Shown here: positions 7,223-20,602 of the stretch, piece after piece
How positions within the stretch are numbered: the stretch's first letter is position 1
Layout of the letters: every line of letters starts with the position of its first letter
Assembly: GCA_965222115.1 (NCBI GenBank)
Contig: CBDCTJ010000007.1
Coordinates: 2,432,001 to 2,496,000 of the forward strand
Source: Planctomycetota bacterium
GTDB lineage: Bacteria > Planctomycetota > PLA2 > JAEUHO01
Direction: 5' to 3'
DNA length: 64,000 bases
Position numbers and translations under genes: made by a program
Notes under the pieces: generated by a model
Told to the model about the DNA's origin: nothing
The model's database searches: none
The model's input: only the letters and a program-made list of their open reading frames with translations

Positions 7223-8572
7223 GTGAGAAGCGAGCGAGGGCGGCTACCTTTCGCATACGAAACAGCCGATAAGATCTCGACCTTTATACGTCCCAAGGAA
7301 GCTCCCGTGATGCCCGCCTGGCCTCCCCGATCCAATGAGCATCAAGGATGGCCGATGGACGGCGCGTCCTCATCATCGGCGTTGCGCTGGGAAGTGCTTC
7401 GTTCCCTGCTCCCGCTTCGCGCGCTCTCCGGAGCATGGGCCGCGTTGATTCGGCCGGGTCAAGAATCGCTCGGACCCACCTTTGTGTTGGCGTGGTTTGA
7501 AACGATGGGGGCCACCGTGACGCCGTTGGTGCTCGTAGCGCGCAGCGAAGACCGGACGTTGGTAGGGCTGCTGGCCATGGCGGAATTCCCCGGCGGACGA
7601 CTCGTGTTCGCGGCCTCGATGGAGGGCGGACAACACGGCGACGTCGTGGCGCTTCCCGAGAACGGGGATCACGTGGCGCGCGGTGCGCTGGGCGCCCTTC
7701 GGTCATATGCATGGAAACACATTTCGTTCCAACGCCTTGCGGCCAATGGTCACTTGGCCCGTTCCTTGGTGGCCGAGGGGCGACTCGGACCGACGCGCGC
7801 GTTTATGAGTGCCGCGGTTCCGCGCATCGAGCGTATGACTACATGGAGCGCATTTCTCAAGTCCAGAACCAAGAAGGTGCGTCACGAGATTCGGCGGCAC
7901 ATTCGACGCTGGGAAGAGACACCGGGTGCGGCCATACGCTGGTCCGATGGACGTCACGCGCTCGACGAAGACATCGACACCCTCTTCAAGCTTCACGAAC
8001 GACGTTTTCGATCCCGGCAGAAACGAACGCAATTCACGGGCTTTTACCAGCGCGTATTCCACAAACGTGTCGCGCGGCGACTGGCACGAGAAGGTCGCCT
8101 CTTGCTCGTCTTTCTTGAAATTCACGGGCGACCCGTTGCAGCGGCCTATGGATGGCACGGCGGCAATACGACAACGCTCTATCAAACGGGATTCGATCCT
8201 TCGGCTGCAAAGCTGAGTCCCGGTTATCTCGTTGCGATCTTCGCCCTGCGCGATGCCGTGATTGGCGGCGGGCGTAGTGTGCTCGATCTTGGCGAGGGGT
8301 GCTACGAGTGGAAACTACGCTGGTCCAATAGTAGCGAGCATCTCATGGACGTTGTGGTGCATCGCCGCGGCGTCATGGGCCGACTACGTAATGCCGCCAC
8401 CTCCACGCTTGCCGCCATTCGTGCGTACCTTCGTCGCCATGTGAGAAAGATCGATTGCCACGGCGCGGTAAATCCGCGAGGTTCTAAGAAACACTGCAGC
8501 AGCATTCAGTGTTCTGCGTGCCCGGCACGAAACGTCGGATCCCACGGACGTCCACGGCGGAAGAGCAAGTAA
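7223..8572 (+). CDS. GNAT-family acyltransferase, CelD/BcsL-like (start uncertain)
   Basis: YQTGFDP...LSPG, LDLGEGCYEWKLRW are typical of the Acetyltransf_6 family. Confidence 0.75.
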   Translation: MRSERGRLPFAYETADKISTFIRPKEAPVMPAWPPRSNEHQGWPMDGASSSSALRWEVLRSLLPLRALSGAWAALIRPGQESLGPTFVLAWFETMGATVTPLVLVARSEDRTLVGLLAMAEFPGGRLVFAASMEGGQHGDVVALPENGDHVARGALGALRSYAWKHISFQRLAANGHLARSLVAEGRLGPTRAFMSAAVPRIERMTTWSAFLKSRTKKVRHEIRRHIRRWEETPGAAIRWSDGRHALDEDIDTLFKLHERRFRSRQKRTQFTGFYQRVFHKRVARRLAREGRLLLVFLEIHGRPVAAAYGWHGGNTTTLYQTGFDPSAAKLSPGYLVAIFALRDAVIGGGRSVLDLGEGCYEWKLRWSNSSEHLMDVVVHRRGVMGRLRNAATSTLAAIRAYLRRHVRKIDCHGAVNPRGSKKHCSSIQCSACPARNVGSHGRPRRKSK

Positions 8573-12843: not shown

Positions 12844-12920
12844 GGGGGCATAGCTCAGCTGGCTAGAGCACTGGCTTTGCAAGCCAGGGGTCAAGGGTTC
12901 GAATCCCTTTGCCTCCACCA
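12844..12920 (+). tRNA. tRNA-Ala(UGC)
   Basis: Cloverleaf with GGGGGCA/TGCCTCC acceptor stem (G3:U70), anticodon arm CTGGC-TTTGCAA-GCCAG, TTCGAAT T-loop, encoded CCA. Confidence 0.97.
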
Positions 12921-14260
12921 CTTTCAATCCCGCAACAAACCAACGTTTCATCGGGTTCGTTGCGGGTTTCGCGTCGATCGCCTTCTGCGTTCCGCCTGTC
13001 CACTTGGTTGCAACCAGATGAGACCGAATGCACCGAAATGGCACCAGAAGGGGTACAAATTGGAGCACAGTCTGCTGCGTCTCCAGAGGCGAGCATCTCG
13101 CCGATCACATGAACGGATTCGGGCGCATTTACAGCCGAGCGGTGATCGAGCAAGCGCGGATCTGTATAGACCGACATCGTCGTTTCAATGTTGGCATGAC
13201 GCGCAAGATGCTGTGTTACTTGCGGGTCTACTTTCGCAGCACGCAGCCCGGTGACGAATGTGCATCGAAGGCTATGGAAATCTACGTAGCGGCCTTGCAT
13301 ATCCTGATACGCGATACCGGCCGCCTCCAAATCCTTGCGCATCGTACGCATGACAGGAATCCACCCAGAAGGAAACACCTTCGCATCTGGATTGTTCACT
13401 TCCGCTGACCGTTGTCGAAGGGCTGGCGCGAGGCAGGAGGGAAACGATGCGTACTGTTCCCGCCTGCTCTTGGCATTGGCGGCACGAATTCGAATCGTCT
13501 CACGCTCCAAATCGACGTCGGCCCATGTGATTGACCCGAGTTCTTTCCTGCGTATTCCGGTAAGGGCCGCGAATCCGTAGAGAAATGAGCGGCGAGAACC
13601 TTCCTTTGTCAATCGCACGCGCTCTTTTCCCGTGACTCCCTTGTGGATACGCGTCTTCAACGCATAGTCGAGCGGTCTAGCAGCGGCCGCCTGTATCAGC
13701 CTGGCGAGTTCTTCGGGCGCCAACGCTCTTCGCTCCCTAGCCCGATCCTCTGCCTCATTCCTCGGCTTGAGGGCCGTAAACGGATCTCTGCGCACCCGTT
13801 GATGTCGGTGGAGCCAGCGCCCGAACTGCCGAAGCGCCTGATAATGGCGGTTCACAGAGCGAGCGCGGAGGCCCTGATTTCCGATATCCGAGAGCCACCT
13901 CGCTGCGAGCGCACCGTCAAGTTGATCCAGCGATGTCAGCCGCGTATCTGTAACGAATCGGCGTAGACACTTCATACGGTCTGTGAAGTGTCCGTCGCTC
14001 ACTCGCCTTGACCGCAGTGCAGACTCAAAGTCAAGCACATGTTGCGCGAGGGGGCGCGTCGAATGCTCGTCAAAGTGATCCGTGAGCCCCGCAGCTTTCC
14101 GCTGTTCGGTGCGAATCATCTCAGCCTCGCGTGCTCCAGCCGCCCGCTTGTCAGTTAGCCCGGTTGACTTTCGAAATTTGCGGCCCTCAACACTGAAACG
14201 CGTCCACCAAACAGGCGAGAGCCTTCCCGACTTTGGGTTCTTGCGTCGATAGAGGCTCAT
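12863..14260 (-). CDS. int: Tyrosine recombinase/integrase
   Basis: Arm-binding N-terminus (WWTRF...RKSTGLTDKRAA); catalytic R (TGIRRKEL), K (NAKS), HxxR (FHSLR), H (ARH), Y (SVYT); the frame runs antisense through the tRNA 3' half. Confidence 0.95.
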   Translation of the reverse strand: MSLYRRKNPKSGRLSPVWWTRFSVEGRKFRKSTGLTDKRAAGAREAEMIRTEQRKAAGLTDHFDEHSTRPLAQHVLDFESALRSRRVSDGHFTDRMKCLRRFVTDTRLTSLDQLDGALAARWLSDIGNQGLRARSVNRHYQALRQFGRWLHRHQRVRRDPFTALKPRNEAEDRARERRALAPEELARLIQAAAARPLDYALKTRIHKGVTGKERVRLTKEGSRRSFLYGFAALTGIRRKELGSITWADVDLERETIRIRAANAKSRREQYASFPSCLAPALRQRSAEVNNPDAKVFPSGWIPVMRTMRKDLEAAGIAYQDMQGRYVDFHSLRCTFVTGLRAAKVDPQVTQHLARHANIETTMSVYTDPRLLDHRSAVNAPESVHVIGEMLASGDAADCAPICTPSGAISVHSVSSGCNQVDRRNAEGDRRETRNEPDETLVCCGIESGGGKGIRTLDPWLAKPVL

Positions 14261-14496
14261 CGCTTCCTTCCTCTCTGCTTCTCTAGAGCTTTCAAGCCAA
14301 TATCCAACGCCTCGCGGAATATAACGCTACGACTAATGGGCTTGTCCTTCGTACCGTGCCGCCTCTGCAGCCGCTTGGCCCGTTTCACAAGGTCCGCCGG
14401 AAGCCTCATGCTCACGAGCATTTCAGAAACGGTGCCGTACGGCTCTTTCTCGATTCGATTCTTCATAGGCATGAGTGTATCACAGATTGGTTTCAT
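14257..14496 (-). CDS. Ribbon-helix-helix (CopG-like) DNA-binding protein
   Basis: LVSMRLPADLV...ISRSVIFREAL; ATGA overlaps with xis upstream and int downstream. Confidence 0.7.
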   Translation of the reverse strand: MKPICDTLMPMKNRIEKEPYGTVSEMLVSMRLPADLVKRAKRLQRRHGTKDKPISRSVIFREALDIGLKALEKQRGRKR

Positions 14497-14705
14497 GGTC
14501 GATGCGTCCTTTCATCTATGTAGTGCTCCAGGTGTCCGGGGCGGACCATGATTCGTTTCGGTGAGACGCGGACTACGGGAAACGAGCCACTGGCGATTCG
14601 TGCTCGCAGAGTCCGTTCTGATAAGCCGAGGATCTTGGCGGTTTCCTTAACCGTGAGCAGGGGTCGGGGCGCTCCCTGCGGTTTTTGGCGGCTTCTAGGT
14701 TGCAT
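14493..14705 (-). CDS. xis: Excisionase-like HTH protein
   Basis: LLTVKETAKILGLSERTLRARIASG; GAGGGGG SD before ATG 14705. Confidence 0.85.
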   Translation of the reverse strand: MQPRSRQKPQGAPRPLLTVKETAKILGLSERTLRARIASGSFPVVRVSPKRIMVRPGHLEHYIDERTHRP

Positions 14706-14833
14706 GGCCGTCCCCCTCTTCTCTTGCAAGGGGTTGTGTCCCTCAACGAGTTTCTGTCCGGTTGAGGACCTGAAATAGGGGTTGATAACGGCCTCTCCCA
14801 TTCGCTGCATAGGTGCGGCAGAAAGGGAGAGCG

Positions 14834-16156
14834 ATGAGCGAGAAACAGAGGTCAGATCGAGGATCGTCAGGCAAGGGGCGCGACGGGGGCGGGAAAGAGT
14901 TCCGTCCGCCGAGGCGCAATCGTTCGGTGGGAACGCGACGTCCCGGTTCCAAGGGGGAGTACTCTGGGGAAGAGCGGTTGTTGCTGTTGGACACATGGCA
15001 GCGATCGGGCTTGCCGGCGACGGAGTTTGGTCGCTTGGTGGGCATCACGCCTCAGACGTTGAGTCGTTGGAAGCAACGGTTTGATGCAGAAGGCCCTGCC
15101 GGGCTATTGGGCTATCGCCGTGGTCAGCGAGGCAGCCGCCTGCCGGAACATGTGCGTCGAGCCATTTTGATGTTGAAGGAACAGCATCCGGATTGGGGGC
15201 AAGACCGCATTCACGACATGTTGCTGCGCTCCCAAGGTCTGCAAGCCAGCGCGGGCGCGGTGCAGCGGGTGTTGAAGGAGGCGGGGTACGAGGTCCATGC
15301 TTTTCGGACGAGGCCCAACCCACCCAAGCCTCAGCGTTTTGAGCGCTCTCGTCCCAACGATCTTTGGCAAACCGATCTGTTCAGCTTTGTGCTCAAGCGC
15401 CAACGCCGCCGTGTGCACCTGGTTGCTTACATGGACGATCATTCCCGCTTCATCGTTGGGTATGGGCTGCATGCATCGGCTTCGGGCGCGCTTGTGCGCG
15501 AGGTGTTTGAGTCCTCGATTGCCAACTTTGGCGCGCCGAAGGAGATTTTGACCGACAACGGGACGCAGTTTCAGACGTGGCGTGGGAAGAGTGCGTTTAC
15601 CAAGCTCTGCGAGCGGCGAGGCATTAAGCAAGTTGTGGCGCGTCCACGGCGTCCGCAGACGCTGGGCAAGATCGAACGATTTTGGGGCACGATTCATCGG
15701 GAGATGATTCAAGCCGCCATTTTCCGTGACCTGGACGAGGCGCGCGAGCGCATTGCGCACTTTGTGGGCTATTACAACTTTCAACGCACCCATCAAGGGA
15801 TCGACGGCTTGGTACCGGCGGATCGCTACTTCGAGGCGGTGCCCGAGATACGCGCCACCATCGAGGCGAACGTGGCCAAGAACGCCAAAGAACTTTCCCT
15901 TCAAGGCAAACCGCGTAAGCATGTGTATTTGACGGGGCGTGTGGGTGAGGAGTCGATCTCGCTTCATACCGAGGGCACGAAGGTTGTACTCACGGGCGAA
16001 GAGGGTGTTCGCGAGGAAGTGGATCTTTCTGCGCCCGGGCGCCGTGTGTCGCTTGAGGCGTCGGATCCGGGCACGAGTTCATTGGATGAGGTGCTAACGG
16101 AACTTGAGACATTGACGCCGAGCGAGGCGAACGACGAGGAGGGAGGTGCAAGATGA
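14834..16156 (+). CDS. IS481-family DDE transposase
   Basis: N-terminal HTHs; WQTD, MDDHSRF, LTDNGTQF, GKIERFW. Confidence 0.9.
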   Translation: MSEKQRSDRGSSGKGRDGGGKEFRPPRRNRSVGTRRPGSKGEYSGEERLLLLDTWQRSGLPATEFGRLVGITPQTLSRWKQRFDAEGPAGLLGYRRGQRGSRLPEHVRRAILMLKEQHPDWGQDRIHDMLLRSQGLQASAGAVQRVLKEAGYEVHAFRTRPNPPKPQRFERSRPNDLWQTDLFSFVLKRQRRRVHLVAYMDDHSRFIVGYGLHASASGALVREVFESSIANFGAPKEILTDNGTQFQTWRGKSAFTKLCERRGIKQVVARPRRPQTLGKIERFWGTIHREMIQAAIFRDLDEARERIAHFVGYYNFQRTHQGIDGLVPADRYFEAVPEIRATIEANVAKNAKELSLQGKPRKHVYLTGRVGEESISLHTEGTKVVLTGEEGVREEVDLSAPGRRVSLEASDPGTSSLDEVLTELETLTPSEANDEEGGAR

Positions 16157-16611
16157 CCAAGGGACTTGCAGCGCTTCAAGGGAGCAAAGCGGCGAAGCGT
16201 TTCATGCTGGTGCTGTTGGAGGCACTGTCGGGCGCGTGCAGCACGACGGAAGCGGCCAAGCGCTTGGAGATCTCCAGTGCGCGGTACTACCAACTGGAGC
16301 TGCGTGCGCTTCAGGGAATGATGAGTGCGCTTGAGCCGCGTTGTAGGGGACGGCAGAACACGCCCGAGCGCATGATTTTGATGCTTGAGAAGGAGAAGCG
16401 TGATCTGGCACTGGAGCTACGACGTGCGCAGAACTTGTTGCGCGCGGCGCGGCGTACGGTGGGCATCAAAGCGTCGAAGAAGCGTGCGGGCACGAAGAAA
16501 AAGCGACGACGTAAGAAGCCACGGGCGCGCGTGGTGCTGGAGACGTTACGAGCAAAGGAGGTGGGCGATGGGTCGACGCAGCCAGACCGAACCCCTCATT
16601 CAGGCGCTTGA
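16153..16611 (+). CDS. HTH/coiled-coil accessory protein of the IS
   Basis: LEALSGACSTTEAAKRLEISSARYYQLE...ALEP; ATGA-coupled to the transposase. Confidence 0.75.
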   Translation: MTKGLAALQGSKAAKRFMLVLLEALSGACSTTEAAKRLEISSARYYQLELRALQGMMSALEPRCRGRQNTPERMILMLEKEKRDLALELRRAQNLLRAARRTVGIKASKKRAGTKKKRRRKKPRARVVLETLRAKEVGDGSTQPDRTPHSGA

Positions 16612-16969
16612 TGCCAGTGAGCTGGCGCGCGAGCGCGTAACGATCATTCTTCTCACGCTAACGGGTGATTGGAGCGTGGCCGATGCGATGGAGCGGCTCT
16701 CGATTTCGCGCACACGGTTCCAGGATCTTCGAAGGACGATGTTGCAAGCGGCACTGTTCGCGTTGGAACCGGGCCGAGCCGGACGCCCGCCTCGATCACG
16801 TGATCCGCGTAAAGAGGCCATGGAGTCATTGCGCAAAGAGATCGCGACCTTGGAACAGGATCTCAAACGCACGCGTGTGCAACTCGAGCTTGCTCGGGGT
16901 CCAGCGGCCAAAGCGATCCAGCGTCGATTGGAGAGTGCGTTTCTTTCCAAGACCTGGAGCAAGAAATGA
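16568..16969 (+). CDS. Second HTH/coiled-coil accessory protein, paralogue of the previous ORF
   Basis: AGGAGG SD; LLTLTGDWSVADAMERLSISRTRFQDLR...ALEP. Confidence 0.75.
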   Translation: MGRRSQTEPLIQALDASELARERVTIILLTLTGDWSVADAMERLSISRTRFQDLRRTMLQAALFALEPGRAGRPPRSRDPRKEAMESLRKEIATLEQDLKRTRVQLELARGPAAKAIQRRLESAFLSKTWSKK

Positions 16970-18084
16970 AAGTCTACGTCAGTTCCCAAGCGCAGTGCGC
17001 CCACGACCGCCGTGATCGCGCCGTGCAGGTGGTGCGAGCGGCCGCGCCTCAGGTGCGCGTTGCGGTGCGCAACGCGGTCGCCAGCACCGACCAGGTAAGT
17101 GAGCGAAGCATTCGGCGTTGGGATCAGCGTGAGCGCGAAGGCACACTGAAGCCTAAGAATCGTGGCCCCAAGCCGCGTGCCGTTGATCGGGACACGCGTC
17201 AAGGCGTGATTCTCCTCATGCTCGCCCTTGGGCCCTGCGCGGGTGTTGCACAGATTCGCTCGATGTTCGAAGAGGTTCCCTATCGCATGATCACAAGCAT
17301 GAAGAAGCGCCTAAAGCGCGTCCGGGAACGGCGTCGCGGACTGTACGAGCGGCGACTCAAGTGGATGCGTGCGGGCACGACATGGGCGATGGACTTTACC
17401 AAGCCCACCGCCAAACTTCCCGACGGCTACAAATGCTTGCTTGTGGTTCGCGACTTGGCGAGCGGGATGCGATTGACGTGTGTGCTGTGCAAAGGGGAGC
17501 GAACCAGCGAAGTGCTAAAGTGTCTGCGAACCCTCTTCGCGGCCTATGAGCCGCCGCTTGTGATGAAGCACGACGGCGGCCCGGCCTTCTTGGCCCACAA
17601 GACGCAGAAACTCCTAGAGTCCCGTGGCGTTGCGTCGTTGCGCTCGCCGGCCTACACGCCTTCGTACAACGGATCCGTGGAGCGCAGCCTTGGGTGGATG
17701 AAAAAGCGCATACAACACATCGCCCACCGCGAGGGCCATCCGGGCATCTGGGGCGCATGGGACATCGAACATGCACGGCGCCAAGCAAACGGAACGCTGC
17801 GCCCGTGGGGTCCAAGAGGACCTTCACCGATCGAGGCGTTTATGCAACGTGATCCCATTACGCCAATCGACCGAGAGGCATTCAAGCGTGCCGTCGATGA
17901 AGAAGCACAGCGTCAACTCGTAGCACACGCGCGAGATCCACGTAAGATGGATCGACCGATTGCGATGGACGTGCTGAAACGAAGATCAATCACACATGCG
18001 TTACAAAAACTCAAGTACTTAACGATTCGGAGAGGCCGAATATCAACACCCATTTCCCCAGAGCAACCGGACAGAAACTCGTGA
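16966..18084 (+). CDS. Second DDE (rve integrase-core) transposase
   Basis: WAMDFT, VRDLASG, KHDGGPAF, YNGSVER; stop codon lies within the right IR. Confidence 0.85.
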   Translation: MKVYVSSQAQCAHDRRDRAVQVVRAAAPQVRVAVRNAVASTDQVSERSIRRWDQREREGTLKPKNRGPKPRAVDRDTRQGVILLMLALGPCAGVAQIRSMFEEVPYRMITSMKKRLKRVRERRRGLYERRLKWMRAGTTWAMDFTKPTAKLPDGYKCLLVVRDLASGMRLTCVLCKGERTSEVLKCLRTLFAAYEPPLVMKHDGGPAFLAHKTQKLLESRGVASLRSPAYTPSYNGSVERSLGWMKKRIQHIAHREGHPGIWGAWDIEHARRQANGTLRPWGPRGPSPIEAFMQRDPITPIDREAFKRAVDEEAQRQLVAHARDPRKMDRPIAMDVLKRRSITHALQKLKYLTIRRGRISTPISPEQPDRNS

Positions 18085-18093
18085 GGGACACAT

Positions 18094-18585
18094 GTAATCC
18101 GTGGATGGGACTCCTCTCCAGGGTCAGAAATTAGAGTCGACGAAGTTGAACTTGACGAGGAATCAGAGAAGTCTGAAACCGATCAGCGAGACGAGCATAA
18201 GAAAGAGGTTTTGGCGGATCTCGCCGCGGAACTCCGCACTCTAATAGAAGCTCAGTATAACTACAGGGTTCGACTGGCTCGCTTGCTAGACATTCAGGCT
18301 AGATATGAAGAGTCTAAGTCTAATCAGCCAGACCCTAGTCCCCCGCCAACGTCGCTTCCACCCAAGGACAGTCCGCCAACTTCTCCCAAGGGTGATCTGC
18401 CAGTGTATCCTCCCAACCAGCCAGGCCCGGCTTTCGGGCCCTATTTTCCCGGCCCATGGGGTTATCCTATCCCTCCTCCATGGCTATGGCCATTGAGGAG
18501 AACGCAGCCTTGGTGGCCTCAAGCTCTCCCAGATCCGCTCAGATTTTGGGACCGGCGCACGGGCGAAGAGATCTTTCCGTGTTAG
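18094..18585 (+). pseudogene. 5'-truncated gene with Pro-rich C-terminus
   Basis: The frame of ORF 18211-18585 stays open back to the IS right end, with no ATG start. Confidence 0.55.
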
Positions 18586-18598
18586 GCAAATTTGGACA

Positions 18599-19465
18599 GT
18601 GAGAGGCCGTGTTGGTTATGCAGAAAGTTTCGACGCCTCCGGCAAGATCAATGGGAGCCGGTCCTTGATTGTGCCCAATTACAGGTCTAGAGCGACTCTG
18701 TTGTCCGTTATCTTCATTGGAGTCTTGCTTGCATCCCTCTCGGTCGCATGTCCTCAGCTACATAATTCGACTAAGAGTAGACATAAGAGTGAGCCGCATC
18801 GATGCAAACCCACTCGTTTCAAATTCGGAGAATTGACGTCTGCATGGGGTCAATCACAGGTCGCCGCCATGTTGGCGGATCGCCCTCAAATGGCATTGGT
18901 GACTACAGTCGATGGGTCAATTAGAAAACTCAACTCGCGAGACCCTATTTGGATGTGGGCAGTTGAGCAGTTTAGCGAAGAACTCGCAGGTGGGCGAGTT
19001 GCGTGGCGGTCAGAAGAACCTTCTGATGTCCCGAATGGCGTCTTGGGAACGTGTCACTTCAGCCCGAATCGTGGCGGAGGACATATTCGTTTGGCGCGCG
19101 GGAAATTTGAAGAGTTGTGGTCGACGTTCGTGTTCGAAATGCACAATATCAGGAGTAGAGACTTGTTTCTCGCCTTGTACGACCAAGCTCGGAAGCTCGA
19201 AATCTGGGAACGCGACTTCGTAAAATCCGCGATATCAATTGAGCACAAATCTCTACTTGATCTCAAGAGATACTATCGAGAGCATTGGCTACCCTGGGCC
19301 CGCCATAATGATGTCGCGACCGATCCTAGTGAGTGGCATATGGATACGTTGAATTCTGCCATTGAGTGGTTCTATAGGGTGGAAGAGGAAAGGCCGAGCT
19401 ACGTCAAGTATTGGCAAAAAGTGTGGGGGCAACTGGCGCGAATACCCGAACCAGAGAATAAGTAA
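18599..19465 (+). CDS. Hypothetical exported protein (start uncertain)
   Basis: Hydrophobic N-terminal segment; FVFEMHN motif. Confidence 0.6.
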   Translation: MRGRVGYAESFDASGKINGSRSLIVPNYRSRATLLSVIFIGVLLASLSVACPQLHNSTKSRHKSEPHRCKPTRFKFGELTSAWGQSQVAAMLADRPQMALVTTVDGSIRKLNSRDPIWMWAVEQFSEELAGGRVAWRSEEPSDVPNGVLGTCHFSPNRGGGHIRLARGKFEELWSTFVFEMHNIRSRDLFLALYDQARKLEIWERDFVKSAISIEHKSLLDLKRYYREHWLPWARHNDVATDPSEWHMDTLNSAIEWFYRVEEERPSYVKYWQKVWGQLARIPEPENK

Positions 19466-19479
19466 GTCGGGATGCTGGG

Positions 19480-20199
19480 ATGACGGTATCATCTCAAGAT
19501 GGGTGGCCCTGTGAAGCGAGGTTGCTGGTCGTGGCATATACGTCGCTCCATCTCACAGAACGGATGCACCCGTATTCAGCGCGGGCGGCTACGCCAAGAA
19601 ACCAGCAAGTATCCGGACCGACTACCCCTCCACTACGCGCTTTCGCCATCTCCATGTGGATTCACGGTGATTCTGGAACTACATTGACGTTGCGCTGCAA
19701 AGACCCTGCGCACGACATCGCCTATTGCGTTGGAACCGACAGCCCTGATCGAGACGTGGAGTTGGTAGGAGTGGACGTGGACGGCAAACTTGCGCGCTTT
19801 ACTGTCAGTCGCGGCGACGAGCAGCACACGTTCAGGTTCGATCGCAGCCGTGAGTTTCACAGCAGCGTGATTCGATTCAGTCCGCGTGGAGCAGCTTTAG
19901 GCGCTCAAGGCTATCAATCCCAAGCGGTCGCAAGCTCCAAGCACCCAGACCTCAAGGCAGTTCCTTACTTCGATGACCGCGGCAAGTGCATTGGCATGCG
20001 AGTGACGGGAATAAGATCCGAGTCGGGTTGGGCTGGCTTAGGCCTTACGCGTGGTGACGTACTACTCGCCGGAGATGGGATCGCGGTGAAGCAGCCTGCG
20101 ATGTTTCGAAAACGAGTGAGGGAAGGGTGGTCGCCAAAGAGTCTCAAGATAGGGAAGATTGACGGTAACGGGCTTCGAGAGGTCGAGCTGGGCGGGTAG
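19480..20199 (+). CDS. Hypothetical protein with GspC-like PDZ C-terminal domain (possibly degraded)
   Basis: AVPYFDDRGKCIGMRVTGIRSESGWAGLGLTRGDVLL. Confidence 0.5.
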   Translation: MTVSSQDGWPCEARLLVVAYTSLHLTERMHPYSARAATPRNQQVSGPTTPPLRAFAISMWIHGDSGTTLTLRCKDPAHDIAYCVGTDSPDRDVELVGVDVDGKLARFTVSRGDEQHTFRFDRSREFHSSVIRFSPRGAALGAQGYQSQAVASSKHPDLKAVPYFDDRGKCIGMRVTGIRSESGWAGLGLTRGDVLLAGDGIAVKQPAMFRKRVREGWSPKSLKIGKIDGNGLREVELGG

Positions 20200-20555
20200 C
20201 TGGATGTATCACGTTGTGGGGAGGGGTGGTGTAAATCCTTGGGAGAATTGGGTTTACGAGCGAGCGTCCAAACGCACGTTTTTTCTCACGGGTTTTGGGG
20301 CTTTCTGCGCATTTACCCTGTTGCGCTTTGGTTGTCTTCCTGCGTATCCGTGGCTTGCTCCAAGAGAGCCCGAGCGGCCCGAATGAGGGGGAGTGGATCC
20401 GGGACTGTCTCGGCGAGCTTCAGGAGGTCCGCTGCCATCTCTGCTGGGGTAGGCACATGCACGCTCTGACGCAAATGGGGCACACTGGAGGGCACACCCA
20501 GGGCGTGTACCTGTCGTATGTCCTGATCAACCTGGCAGTTGCGACCTGTGTCGAT

Positions 20556-20602
20556 TGGCTTTGCAAGCCAGGGGTCACCGGTTCGAATCCGGTTGCCTCC
20601 AC
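20556..20602 (+). repeat. attR: displaced tRNA-Ala 3' half
   Basis: TGGCTTTGCAAGCCAGGGGTCA is identical to 12872-12893; the T-arm is a variant. Confidence 0.9.

Follow-up and report, generated by a model that had tools for sequence, protein, structure and literature searches.

A planctomycete integrative element whose integrase gene appears to span its own attachment site

The stretch of DNA analysed here, called the window, comprises 64,000 nucleotides (nt) of a Planctomycetota bacterium (assembly GCA_965222115.1, contig CBDCTJ010000007.1, positions 2,432,001 to 2,496,000) and carries a small integrative element of 7,684 base pairs (bp), which is bounded by a transfer RNA gene, tRNA-Ala(tgc), and by a displaced copy of the 3' part of this tRNA. 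The integrase gene of the element (int, encoding Int) reads antisense into the tRNA gene, across the site at which the element is joined to the host chromosome. The relation between this gene, the attachment site and a stop-free reading frame at the opposite end of the element is the subject of this work.

The only tRNA that ARAGORN calls in the window is tRNA-Ala(tgc), on the plus strand at 12844-12920. This gene is a regenerated target, in which 12844-12871 are the host 5' part and the nucleotides from 12872 onward are the shared core and a 3' half carried by the element. A repeat search finds a 47-nt direct repeat with 91% identity, whose copies lie 7,684 nt apart, at the left attachment site (attL, 12872-12918) and at the right attachment site (attR, 20556-20602), the latter being what was originally the 3' part of the host tRNA-Ala gene, now displaced. 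The first 22 nt of both copies (12872-12893 and 20556-20577), which form the anticodon stem-loop, match exactly; the four mismatches fall in the T-stem as paired changes, so that either copy could fold as a T-arm. When the host 5' half is joined to the attR piece, the rebuilt bacterial site (attB) is again called as tRNA-Ala(tgc) by ARAGORN. The attR T-arm is identical to the tRNA-Ala T-arm of the related genome L090 and near-identical to that of L093, and the attL T-arm differs from both, so the 3' half that now completes the tRNA arrived with the element, inside int. From the repeat, the crossover site is placed within the 22-nt identical stretch, in the anticodon stem-loop, and int would therefore be cut there. 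Integration sites centred on the anticodon are the usual class in tRNA genes according to a section of the Islander paper (PMC4383910). A search for the unoccupied site in 30 related genomes, all from other genera, matched only tRNA genes and found no empty site. Logan metagenome contigs from four runs of one study contain none that joins 12871 to 20556 or 20555 to 12872, a result that is uninformative on excision and on expression. At E <= 1e-5, the genome itself holds no further member of the window integrase family.

In its integrated, short form, the int gene occupies 12863-14260 on the minus strand and encodes 465 amino acids (aa), its last two codons and stop being DNA of the host tRNA 5' half. 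Residues 224-368, encoded at 13157-13591 on the minus strand, match the Phage_integrase model PF00589 with 68.1 bits against a cutoff of 27.1 (E 1e-18), and the protein matches the PHROG integrase family phrog_1 at E 1.3e-40. The catalytic residues R237, K264, H329, R332, and Y365 are invariant in an alignment of the window Int with nine relatives, and H355 is nearly so; the Tyr365 codon is at 13166-13168. By these features the window Int is identified as a tyrosine recombinase, whose integrated open reading frame (ORF) keeps every domain and all catalytic residues. This ORF extends 100 codons beyond Y365. The linker after the catalytic domain (12921-13156, minus strand) has no conservation in the alignment and would hold the P-arm side of the attachment site of the excised circle (attP). 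The last 19 codons are antisense to the tRNA gene and read through the T-arm, the anticodon arm and two codons of the host 5' half to a TAG, and the 22-nt att core is within the ORF, 91-98 codons after Y365.

The codons at 12872-12874 and 20556-20558 are identical, and joining of the two cores opens 80 codons, from 20555 down to 20316, which end in a stop at 20313-20315. The stretch 20313-20555 on the minus strand, 80 codons plus stop in frame with int after core joining, would be the orphaned 3' end of int, for which integration substitutes two codons. An earlier note on this DNA, made from the sequence alone, had claimed that int extends about 100 codons beyond the catalytic Tyr and crosses the tRNA half in antisense, and that joining at 12872 = 20556 brings it in frame with the stop-free run 20555-20313, and both claims are confirmed by the positions given here. 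The note also proposed that the second half of this tail is an amphipathic helical hairpin, which is borne out by AlphaFold2: the model of the window tail, made from a 12-row alignment, has helices at residues 37-48 and 55-73 with predicted local distance difference test (pLDDT) values of ~90-96 (31 residues at pLDDT >= 90), and its first 35 residues are unstructured. In the conserved two-helix hairpin (20337-20447, minus strand, tail residues 37-73), a turn rich in Pro/Asp-Leu-Pro separates the first helix from the second, which is amphipathic. The further caution of the note, that an open frame of this kind can arise by chance, holds for a single locus, for which the probability of 80 open codons at 58.5% GC is ~0.06, and 23% of window positions and frames have at least 80 open codons ahead; it does not hold once the frame and tail conserved in relatives are considered. 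Since a single 80-codon frame is hardly beyond chance, comparison with relatives must decide.

A word-index search with the window Int gives 25 relatives at E <= 0.001. Four of the nine aligned relatives read antisense peptides of the tRNA T-arm type and then stop, and the other five end soon after the catalytic domain. A scan of 185,579 species genomes finds 80 homologous loci, nearly all in metagenome-assembled genomes of Planctomycetota, with a few in Verrucomicrobiota and others. The int ORF overlaps an antisense ARAGORN tRNA gene in 53 of these 80 loci, which cover 20 anticodons and 15 amino acids, and in all 53 the frame is open from the Tyr to the tRNA, over 67-114 codons (median 96), though the sequence of this part is unconserved. 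The remaining 27 loci consist of one that leaves its contig and 26 that stop without a tRNA call; nine of the latter are short forms, three bear a tail, and the others are extended by 67-422 residues, several with tRNA-like peptides at their ends. The loci L007, L008, L009, L010, and L022 (also P0004-P0007 and P0009) are the closest relatives of the window Int, with 38-49% identity, and stop 21-37 residues past the Tyr, without a tail and with no tRNA nearby.

The flank upstream of int was searched for a second copy of the tRNA part in the 53 tRNA-overlapping loci. Seven loci have less than 300 nt of flank, 34 have no repeat within 0.4-10 kb of flank, and 12 have matches, two of which (12 nt, E ~0.04) were dropped as chance. 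The 10 remaining loci have repeats of 44-81 nt that bound elements of 5.0-10.7 kb. In eight of these (L004, L029, L032, L037, L038, L050, L053, and L067), joining of the cores continues the int frame for 58-75 codons into the hairpin motif, so the rebuilding of attP in homologues that the earlier note had suggested finds both frame continuity and the helical tail conserved. The in-frame continuation in the 10 loci and the window is 47-80 codons long (median 66), compared with a median of 16.5 codons in the other two frames (Mann-Whitney p 5e-4), and the int frame is the longest in 8 of 11. The integrated Int of the 10 rebuilt loci extends at most 50 codons past the junction. Matches of the motif profile to the rebuilt tails are circular, because the profile was built from them; L037 was outside the profile set, yet its tail motif, which lies 7.7 kb upstream of int and on the strand of int, scored E 5e-11 and later proved to be in frame. 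The tail of the window is closest to that of L004 among the rebuilt tails, with 37% identity over the alignment.

ORFs with the tail motif are also found upstream of int on the opposite strand, at L058:1551-1766 and L058:4423-4686 (both minus strand) and at L042:4925-5260 (minus strand). These ORFs may be left over from further elements that inserted one beside the other at this site.

The long form is found in one piece in some relatives. P0014 has 203 relatives at E <= 1e-10, and the motif profile was run on the 120 that were listed. The tail motif (independent E-value < 1e-3) is present in six of these 120, namely P0014, P0030, P0039, P0055, P0123, and P0131, of which only P0014 was in the profile set. 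P0014, P0039, and P0055 have a tRNA-like peptide ~50-70 residues before the tail, as expected of the attP form of the gene. In the loci L016, L044, and L025, the tail follows the catalytic domain on a shorter linker with no tRNA-like part, which indicates that it is a genuine domain of the family and not a by-product of the att site. The IMG/VR contig L085 (9,542 nt) has an exact terminal overlap of 87 nt and is therefore taken to be assembled as a circle of 9,455 bp. Its int ORF, of 594 aa, crosses a piece like a tRNA 3' half, while the contig has no called tRNA gene; a replication-type gene with DUF3987/Toprim similarity (860 aa) is directly upstream of int. The sequence of L085 supports an attP contained in int when the element is a free circle, though it gives no support to conservation of the tail. 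As a whole, L085 resembles the free state of a small, plasmid-like integrative element.

The hairpin is also constrained at the codon level. Among 22 pairs of hairpin codon sequences, the proportion of synonymous differences (pS, 0.52-0.82) exceeds that of nonsynonymous differences (pN, 0.18-0.54) in all 22, with synonymous sites near saturation, and the ratio of the corresponding rates (dN/dS) is 0.18-0.85 where computable; the motif is thus kept as protein and not as a DNA site. Taken with the frames of the relatives, these comparisons indicate that the long ORF has been kept by selection across a large family of planctomycete integrases.

The full-length gene would encode, in order, an N-terminal domain, a core-binding domain, the catalytic domain, an unconserved linker of ~95 residues, ~16 residues antisense to the tRNA 3' half (the attP core), ~36 further linker residues and a helix-loop-helix of ~37 residues. 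The AlphaFold2 model of the relative P0014 begins with a three-stranded sheet and a helix at the N-terminus; a helical core-binding domain and a catalytic domain that extends to ~348 come next, followed by residues 373-475 at pLDDT < 50, which hold the tRNA-like part, and by a terminal helix-turn-helix at pLDDT 80-85. According to these models, the whole attP region of the window, ~270 bp long toward int and ~240 bp toward the tail, codes for a disordered tether, so its DNA would be free to act as an att site.

Searches for the tail itself give few matches. The tail matches no Pfam, NCBIfam or PHROG family, and Foldseek of the tail model against the PDB finds nothing at E <= 0.001, the best rows (E ~1) being fragments of unrelated proteins. 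Among 1.84 billion protein representatives, the window tail finds only three small ORFs (P0026-P0028), all of which contain the hairpin motif; P0027 is an attR-side ORF with an antisense-tRNA peptide first and then the tail in the same frame. A word-index search with the tail region of P0014 finds only P0014 itself. The ESM Atlas clusters closest to the P0014 tail, with 51-94 members mostly from Planctomycetota, consist of hypothetical proteins of 64-73 aa. Their score of 0.89 makes them no more than a lead; in all probability they are orphaned tails of integrases for which genes have been annotated.

It is probable, on this evidence, that the int gene of the element contains its own attP, that only the excised circle has the gene in full length and that recombination rewrites the enzyme it encodes. 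Integration would cut int at the core, leaving the 465-aa enzyme and stranding its last 80 codons 7.7 kb away at attR, and excision would rejoin them in frame. The long form would be the enzyme that integrates the free circle, and the short form, with a neighbouring excisionase-like protein, would be the means of excision of the integrated element. The hairpin may serve as a protein-protein contact on a flexible tether, which assembles or stabilises the integrative synapse or restrains excision. Loss of the hairpin on integration is tentatively proposed to bias the system toward staying integrated, a proposal about which we have somewhat more doubt than confidence. The recombination-controlled switch of integrase activity or stability that the earlier note had suggested is likewise a hypothesis. 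A wider picture, and a rather doubtful one, is that of small elements across the phylum that hide their whole attP (~0.5 kb) in the coding sequence of a disordered linker and use the tail as a built-in directionality device, which integrative synapsis would require or be favoured by. If the tail were such a device, the enzyme left after integration would be biased against re-integration or premature excision and would depend less on a separate directionality factor.

Several observations speak against this reading. Nine of the 80 loci (L007, L008, L009, L010, L014, L022, L023, L051, and L074) stop 16-40 residues past the Tyr without linker or tail, and several of them are among the closest relatives of the window Int; the existence of such tail-less relatives means that the tail is unnecessary for catalysis as such. 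The rebuilt frame of L059 is open for 72 codons and lacks the motif, and that of L062 continues for 47 codons, with the motif in a frame other than that of the computed junction. The C-terminus of the L085 integrase is not recognised by the motif profile. L041 has a contiguous-looking attP form in which the tail (7345-7611) is out of the int frame (ORF end 7442); this mismatch may be due to an assembly indel, to a decayed copy or mutation or to a frameshift site. A search for arm-type sites in the rebuilt window attP finds one 10-nt repeat, no more than in shuffles, and arm-type sites are therefore not demonstrated there. With an insertion sequence (IS) of the IS481 family 29 nt upstream of the excisionase-like gene, the window element itself may no longer be mobile.

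The 10-nt word found in the arm-type search is at 20307-20316 and 13123-13132. Its copies are symmetric, ~230-250 nt from the core on each arm, and one of them abuts the stop of the tail. A heterobivalent integrase of the lambda type would combine an N-terminal arm-binding domain with repeated arm-type sites in attP; on this point, P0014 is modelled with the N-terminal sheet and helix, and the rebuilt window attP has this single repeat.

Other explanations of the stranded frame differ in what they take the tail to do. The 80 codons could be a chance frame or part of an unrelated small gene, joined in frame by coincidence, and the single-locus figures given above (~6% at this GC, and nearly a quarter of window positions and frames) leave room for this; it is made highly improbable by the identity of the tail to that of L004, by the hairpin motif common to L004 and P0026-P0028, by the eight rebuilt loci in frame with the motif, by the contiguous long forms and by the excess of pS over pN. 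A split protein, in which the stranded tail is made from attR as a small protein that acts in trans on the short Int, would mean that integration changes the linkage of the parts and not the parts themselves. The window has a candidate for it, a 60-aa ORF from a GTG at 20495 (20313-20495) that contains the entire hairpin, gene callers predicted comparable small ORFs (P0026, 59 aa; P0028, 77 aa), and the ESM Atlas clusters are of similar kind, again as a lead only. This possibility is nevertheless improbable: the tails have no conserved start codon at a set position, no ribosome-binding or promoter signal is seen by eye upstream of the GTG at 20495, attR is entered from unrelated host DNA that differs for each element, and ORF calls are no proof of expression.

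The tail may also be conserved without its loss having any regulatory meaning. The attP would then be placed in a dispensable linker, the hairpin would serve the free state only, in contact with a replication or maintenance factor or with a host protein, and the short form would recombine as well as the long one. The relatives without tail and linker in nine of 80 loci agree with such a role, as does the DUF3987/Toprim replication-type gene beside int in the free circle L085, and a complex prediction of Int residues 1-385 with tail residues 30-80, made with no control complexes, scores 0.00, without a verdict for contact between tail and core. We regard this explanation as unlikely, since an in-frame tail across att in most rebuilt elements would be costly if it were irrelevant to the reaction that removes it; moreover, the new 3' end alters integrase action in the Myxococcus phage Mx8, as stated in a passage of a review (PMC6070905). 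The rewriting of int by recombination remains the preferred explanation, with a regulatory role for the hairpin as its more tentative part.

The other genes of the element are few. The 79-aa ORF just upstream of int (14257-14496, minus strand), common to the L004 element, has only a sub-threshold match to TraM, and its product is possibly a small DNA-binding regulator. It is preceded by the excisionase-like helix-turn-helix (HTH) gene (14493-14705, minus strand; 70 aa, ATG at 14705), whose product matches HTH_17 with 39.6 bits against a cutoff of 27, phrog_66 excisionase at E 4.6e-9 and TIGR01764 "excise" with 25.3 bits, under the cutoff of 28.8. The IS481-family insertion sequence occupies 14734-18092 on the plus strand (3,359 bp; transpos_IS481, 230.1 bits against a cutoff of 224) and has terminal inverted repeats of ~70 nt and two rve-type transposase ORFs of 447 and 372 aa. 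The genome has a second, 100% identical copy (G000:C7:3063957-3067315) and, at C7:364508-364661, a solo end of 154 nt. The IS481 copy is a later insertion, foreign to the native element, which without it is 4,325 bp long. At 29 nt upstream of the excisionase-like start codon, the IS may have abolished the expression of the excision gene, although neither int nor the tail is damaged. Three cargo ORFs of 124, 288, and 239 aa lie at 18211-20199 on the plus strand and match no family above threshold. For the 239-aa ORF (19480-20199), the C-terminal part of a GspC model gives a weak match of 24.1 bits, below its cutoff of 150, and the other two cargo ORFs match nothing. Among 10 elements compared, the only recurring genes are int, a small HTH or excisionase-like gene and a small gene upstream of int, and the search for shared cargo finds no capsid and no common replication gene.

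These findings have consequences for annotation and for the study of integrases. A class of small "hypothetical proteins" beside tRNA fragments would be explained as orphaned integrase tails. The int ORFs annotated in integrated elements of this planctomycete family would represent the free-state enzyme in truncated form, which matters when such integrases are mined as genome-engineering tools. The family also offers a comparative handle on a removable C-terminus, with natural pairs of long and short enzymes.

Phage Mx8, which the earlier note had named as precedent, integrates at tRNA-Asp genes, and the forms of its Int are called IntP (phage) and IntX (prophage); phage Mx9 is similar to Mx8. 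The Mx8 Int, translated from NC_003085, has its Tyr at ~355 and a peptide like antisense tRNA at ~415, followed by ~110 residues. The precedent holds for the architecture: in both systems the ORF passes the Tyr and crosses a tRNA-derived attP core into a further C-terminal part, and the window has the same layout, with the core inside int past the Tyr, the tRNA 3' part carried by the element and the C-terminus of Int swapped by integration. In Mx8, attP is inside int and integration gives the gene a new 3' end without inactivating the enzyme, as described in portions of PMC6070905 and PMC4383910, and the same part of the review (PMC6070905) states that what the enzyme recombines differs after this change. 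The Islander authors, in a passage naming Mx8 and SSV, allow for integrases that extend across attP (PMC4383910). The sequences, however, have no detectable kinship beyond the superfamily (BLASTP of Mx8 Int gives E 0.13 with the window Int and 9.3 with P0014), the hairpin profile finds no match in the tail of Mx8 (E 0.38), and Mx8 is not among the 11 records matched by tblastn in 50,697 phage records. Mx8 is a tailed phage of 49.5 kb, whereas the rebuilt elements are of 5-11 kb and belong to Planctomycetota hosts.

The C-terminal tail of lambda Int and helix N of Cre are segments past the Tyr that contact the neighbouring protomer and tune activity. They set the principle on which the contact proposed for the hairpin is based; they differ from it in directly following the Tyr, whereas the hairpin is ~150 residues further, behind a linker modelled as disordered. 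The SSV1-type integrases share with the window Int an att site within the integrase gene. In that type integration partitions the gene and the enzyme is possibly inactive, and it is described as exclusive to archaea in a section of PMC8371274. A "suicidal" integrase of the SSV1 type was considered for the window and ruled out, as the integrated ORF keeps the catalytic domain and the Tyr and only the tethered tail is removed. A literature search found no description of this planctomycete integrase family. Mx8 has long been an oddity, and the same design would now be the normal state of a large, unrelated integrase family of Planctomycetota and some neighbours with many tRNA targets. What is new, as judged from these sequences, is Mx8-like rewriting of the integrase gene in an unrelated and widespread planctomycete family that has a conserved tail of its own.

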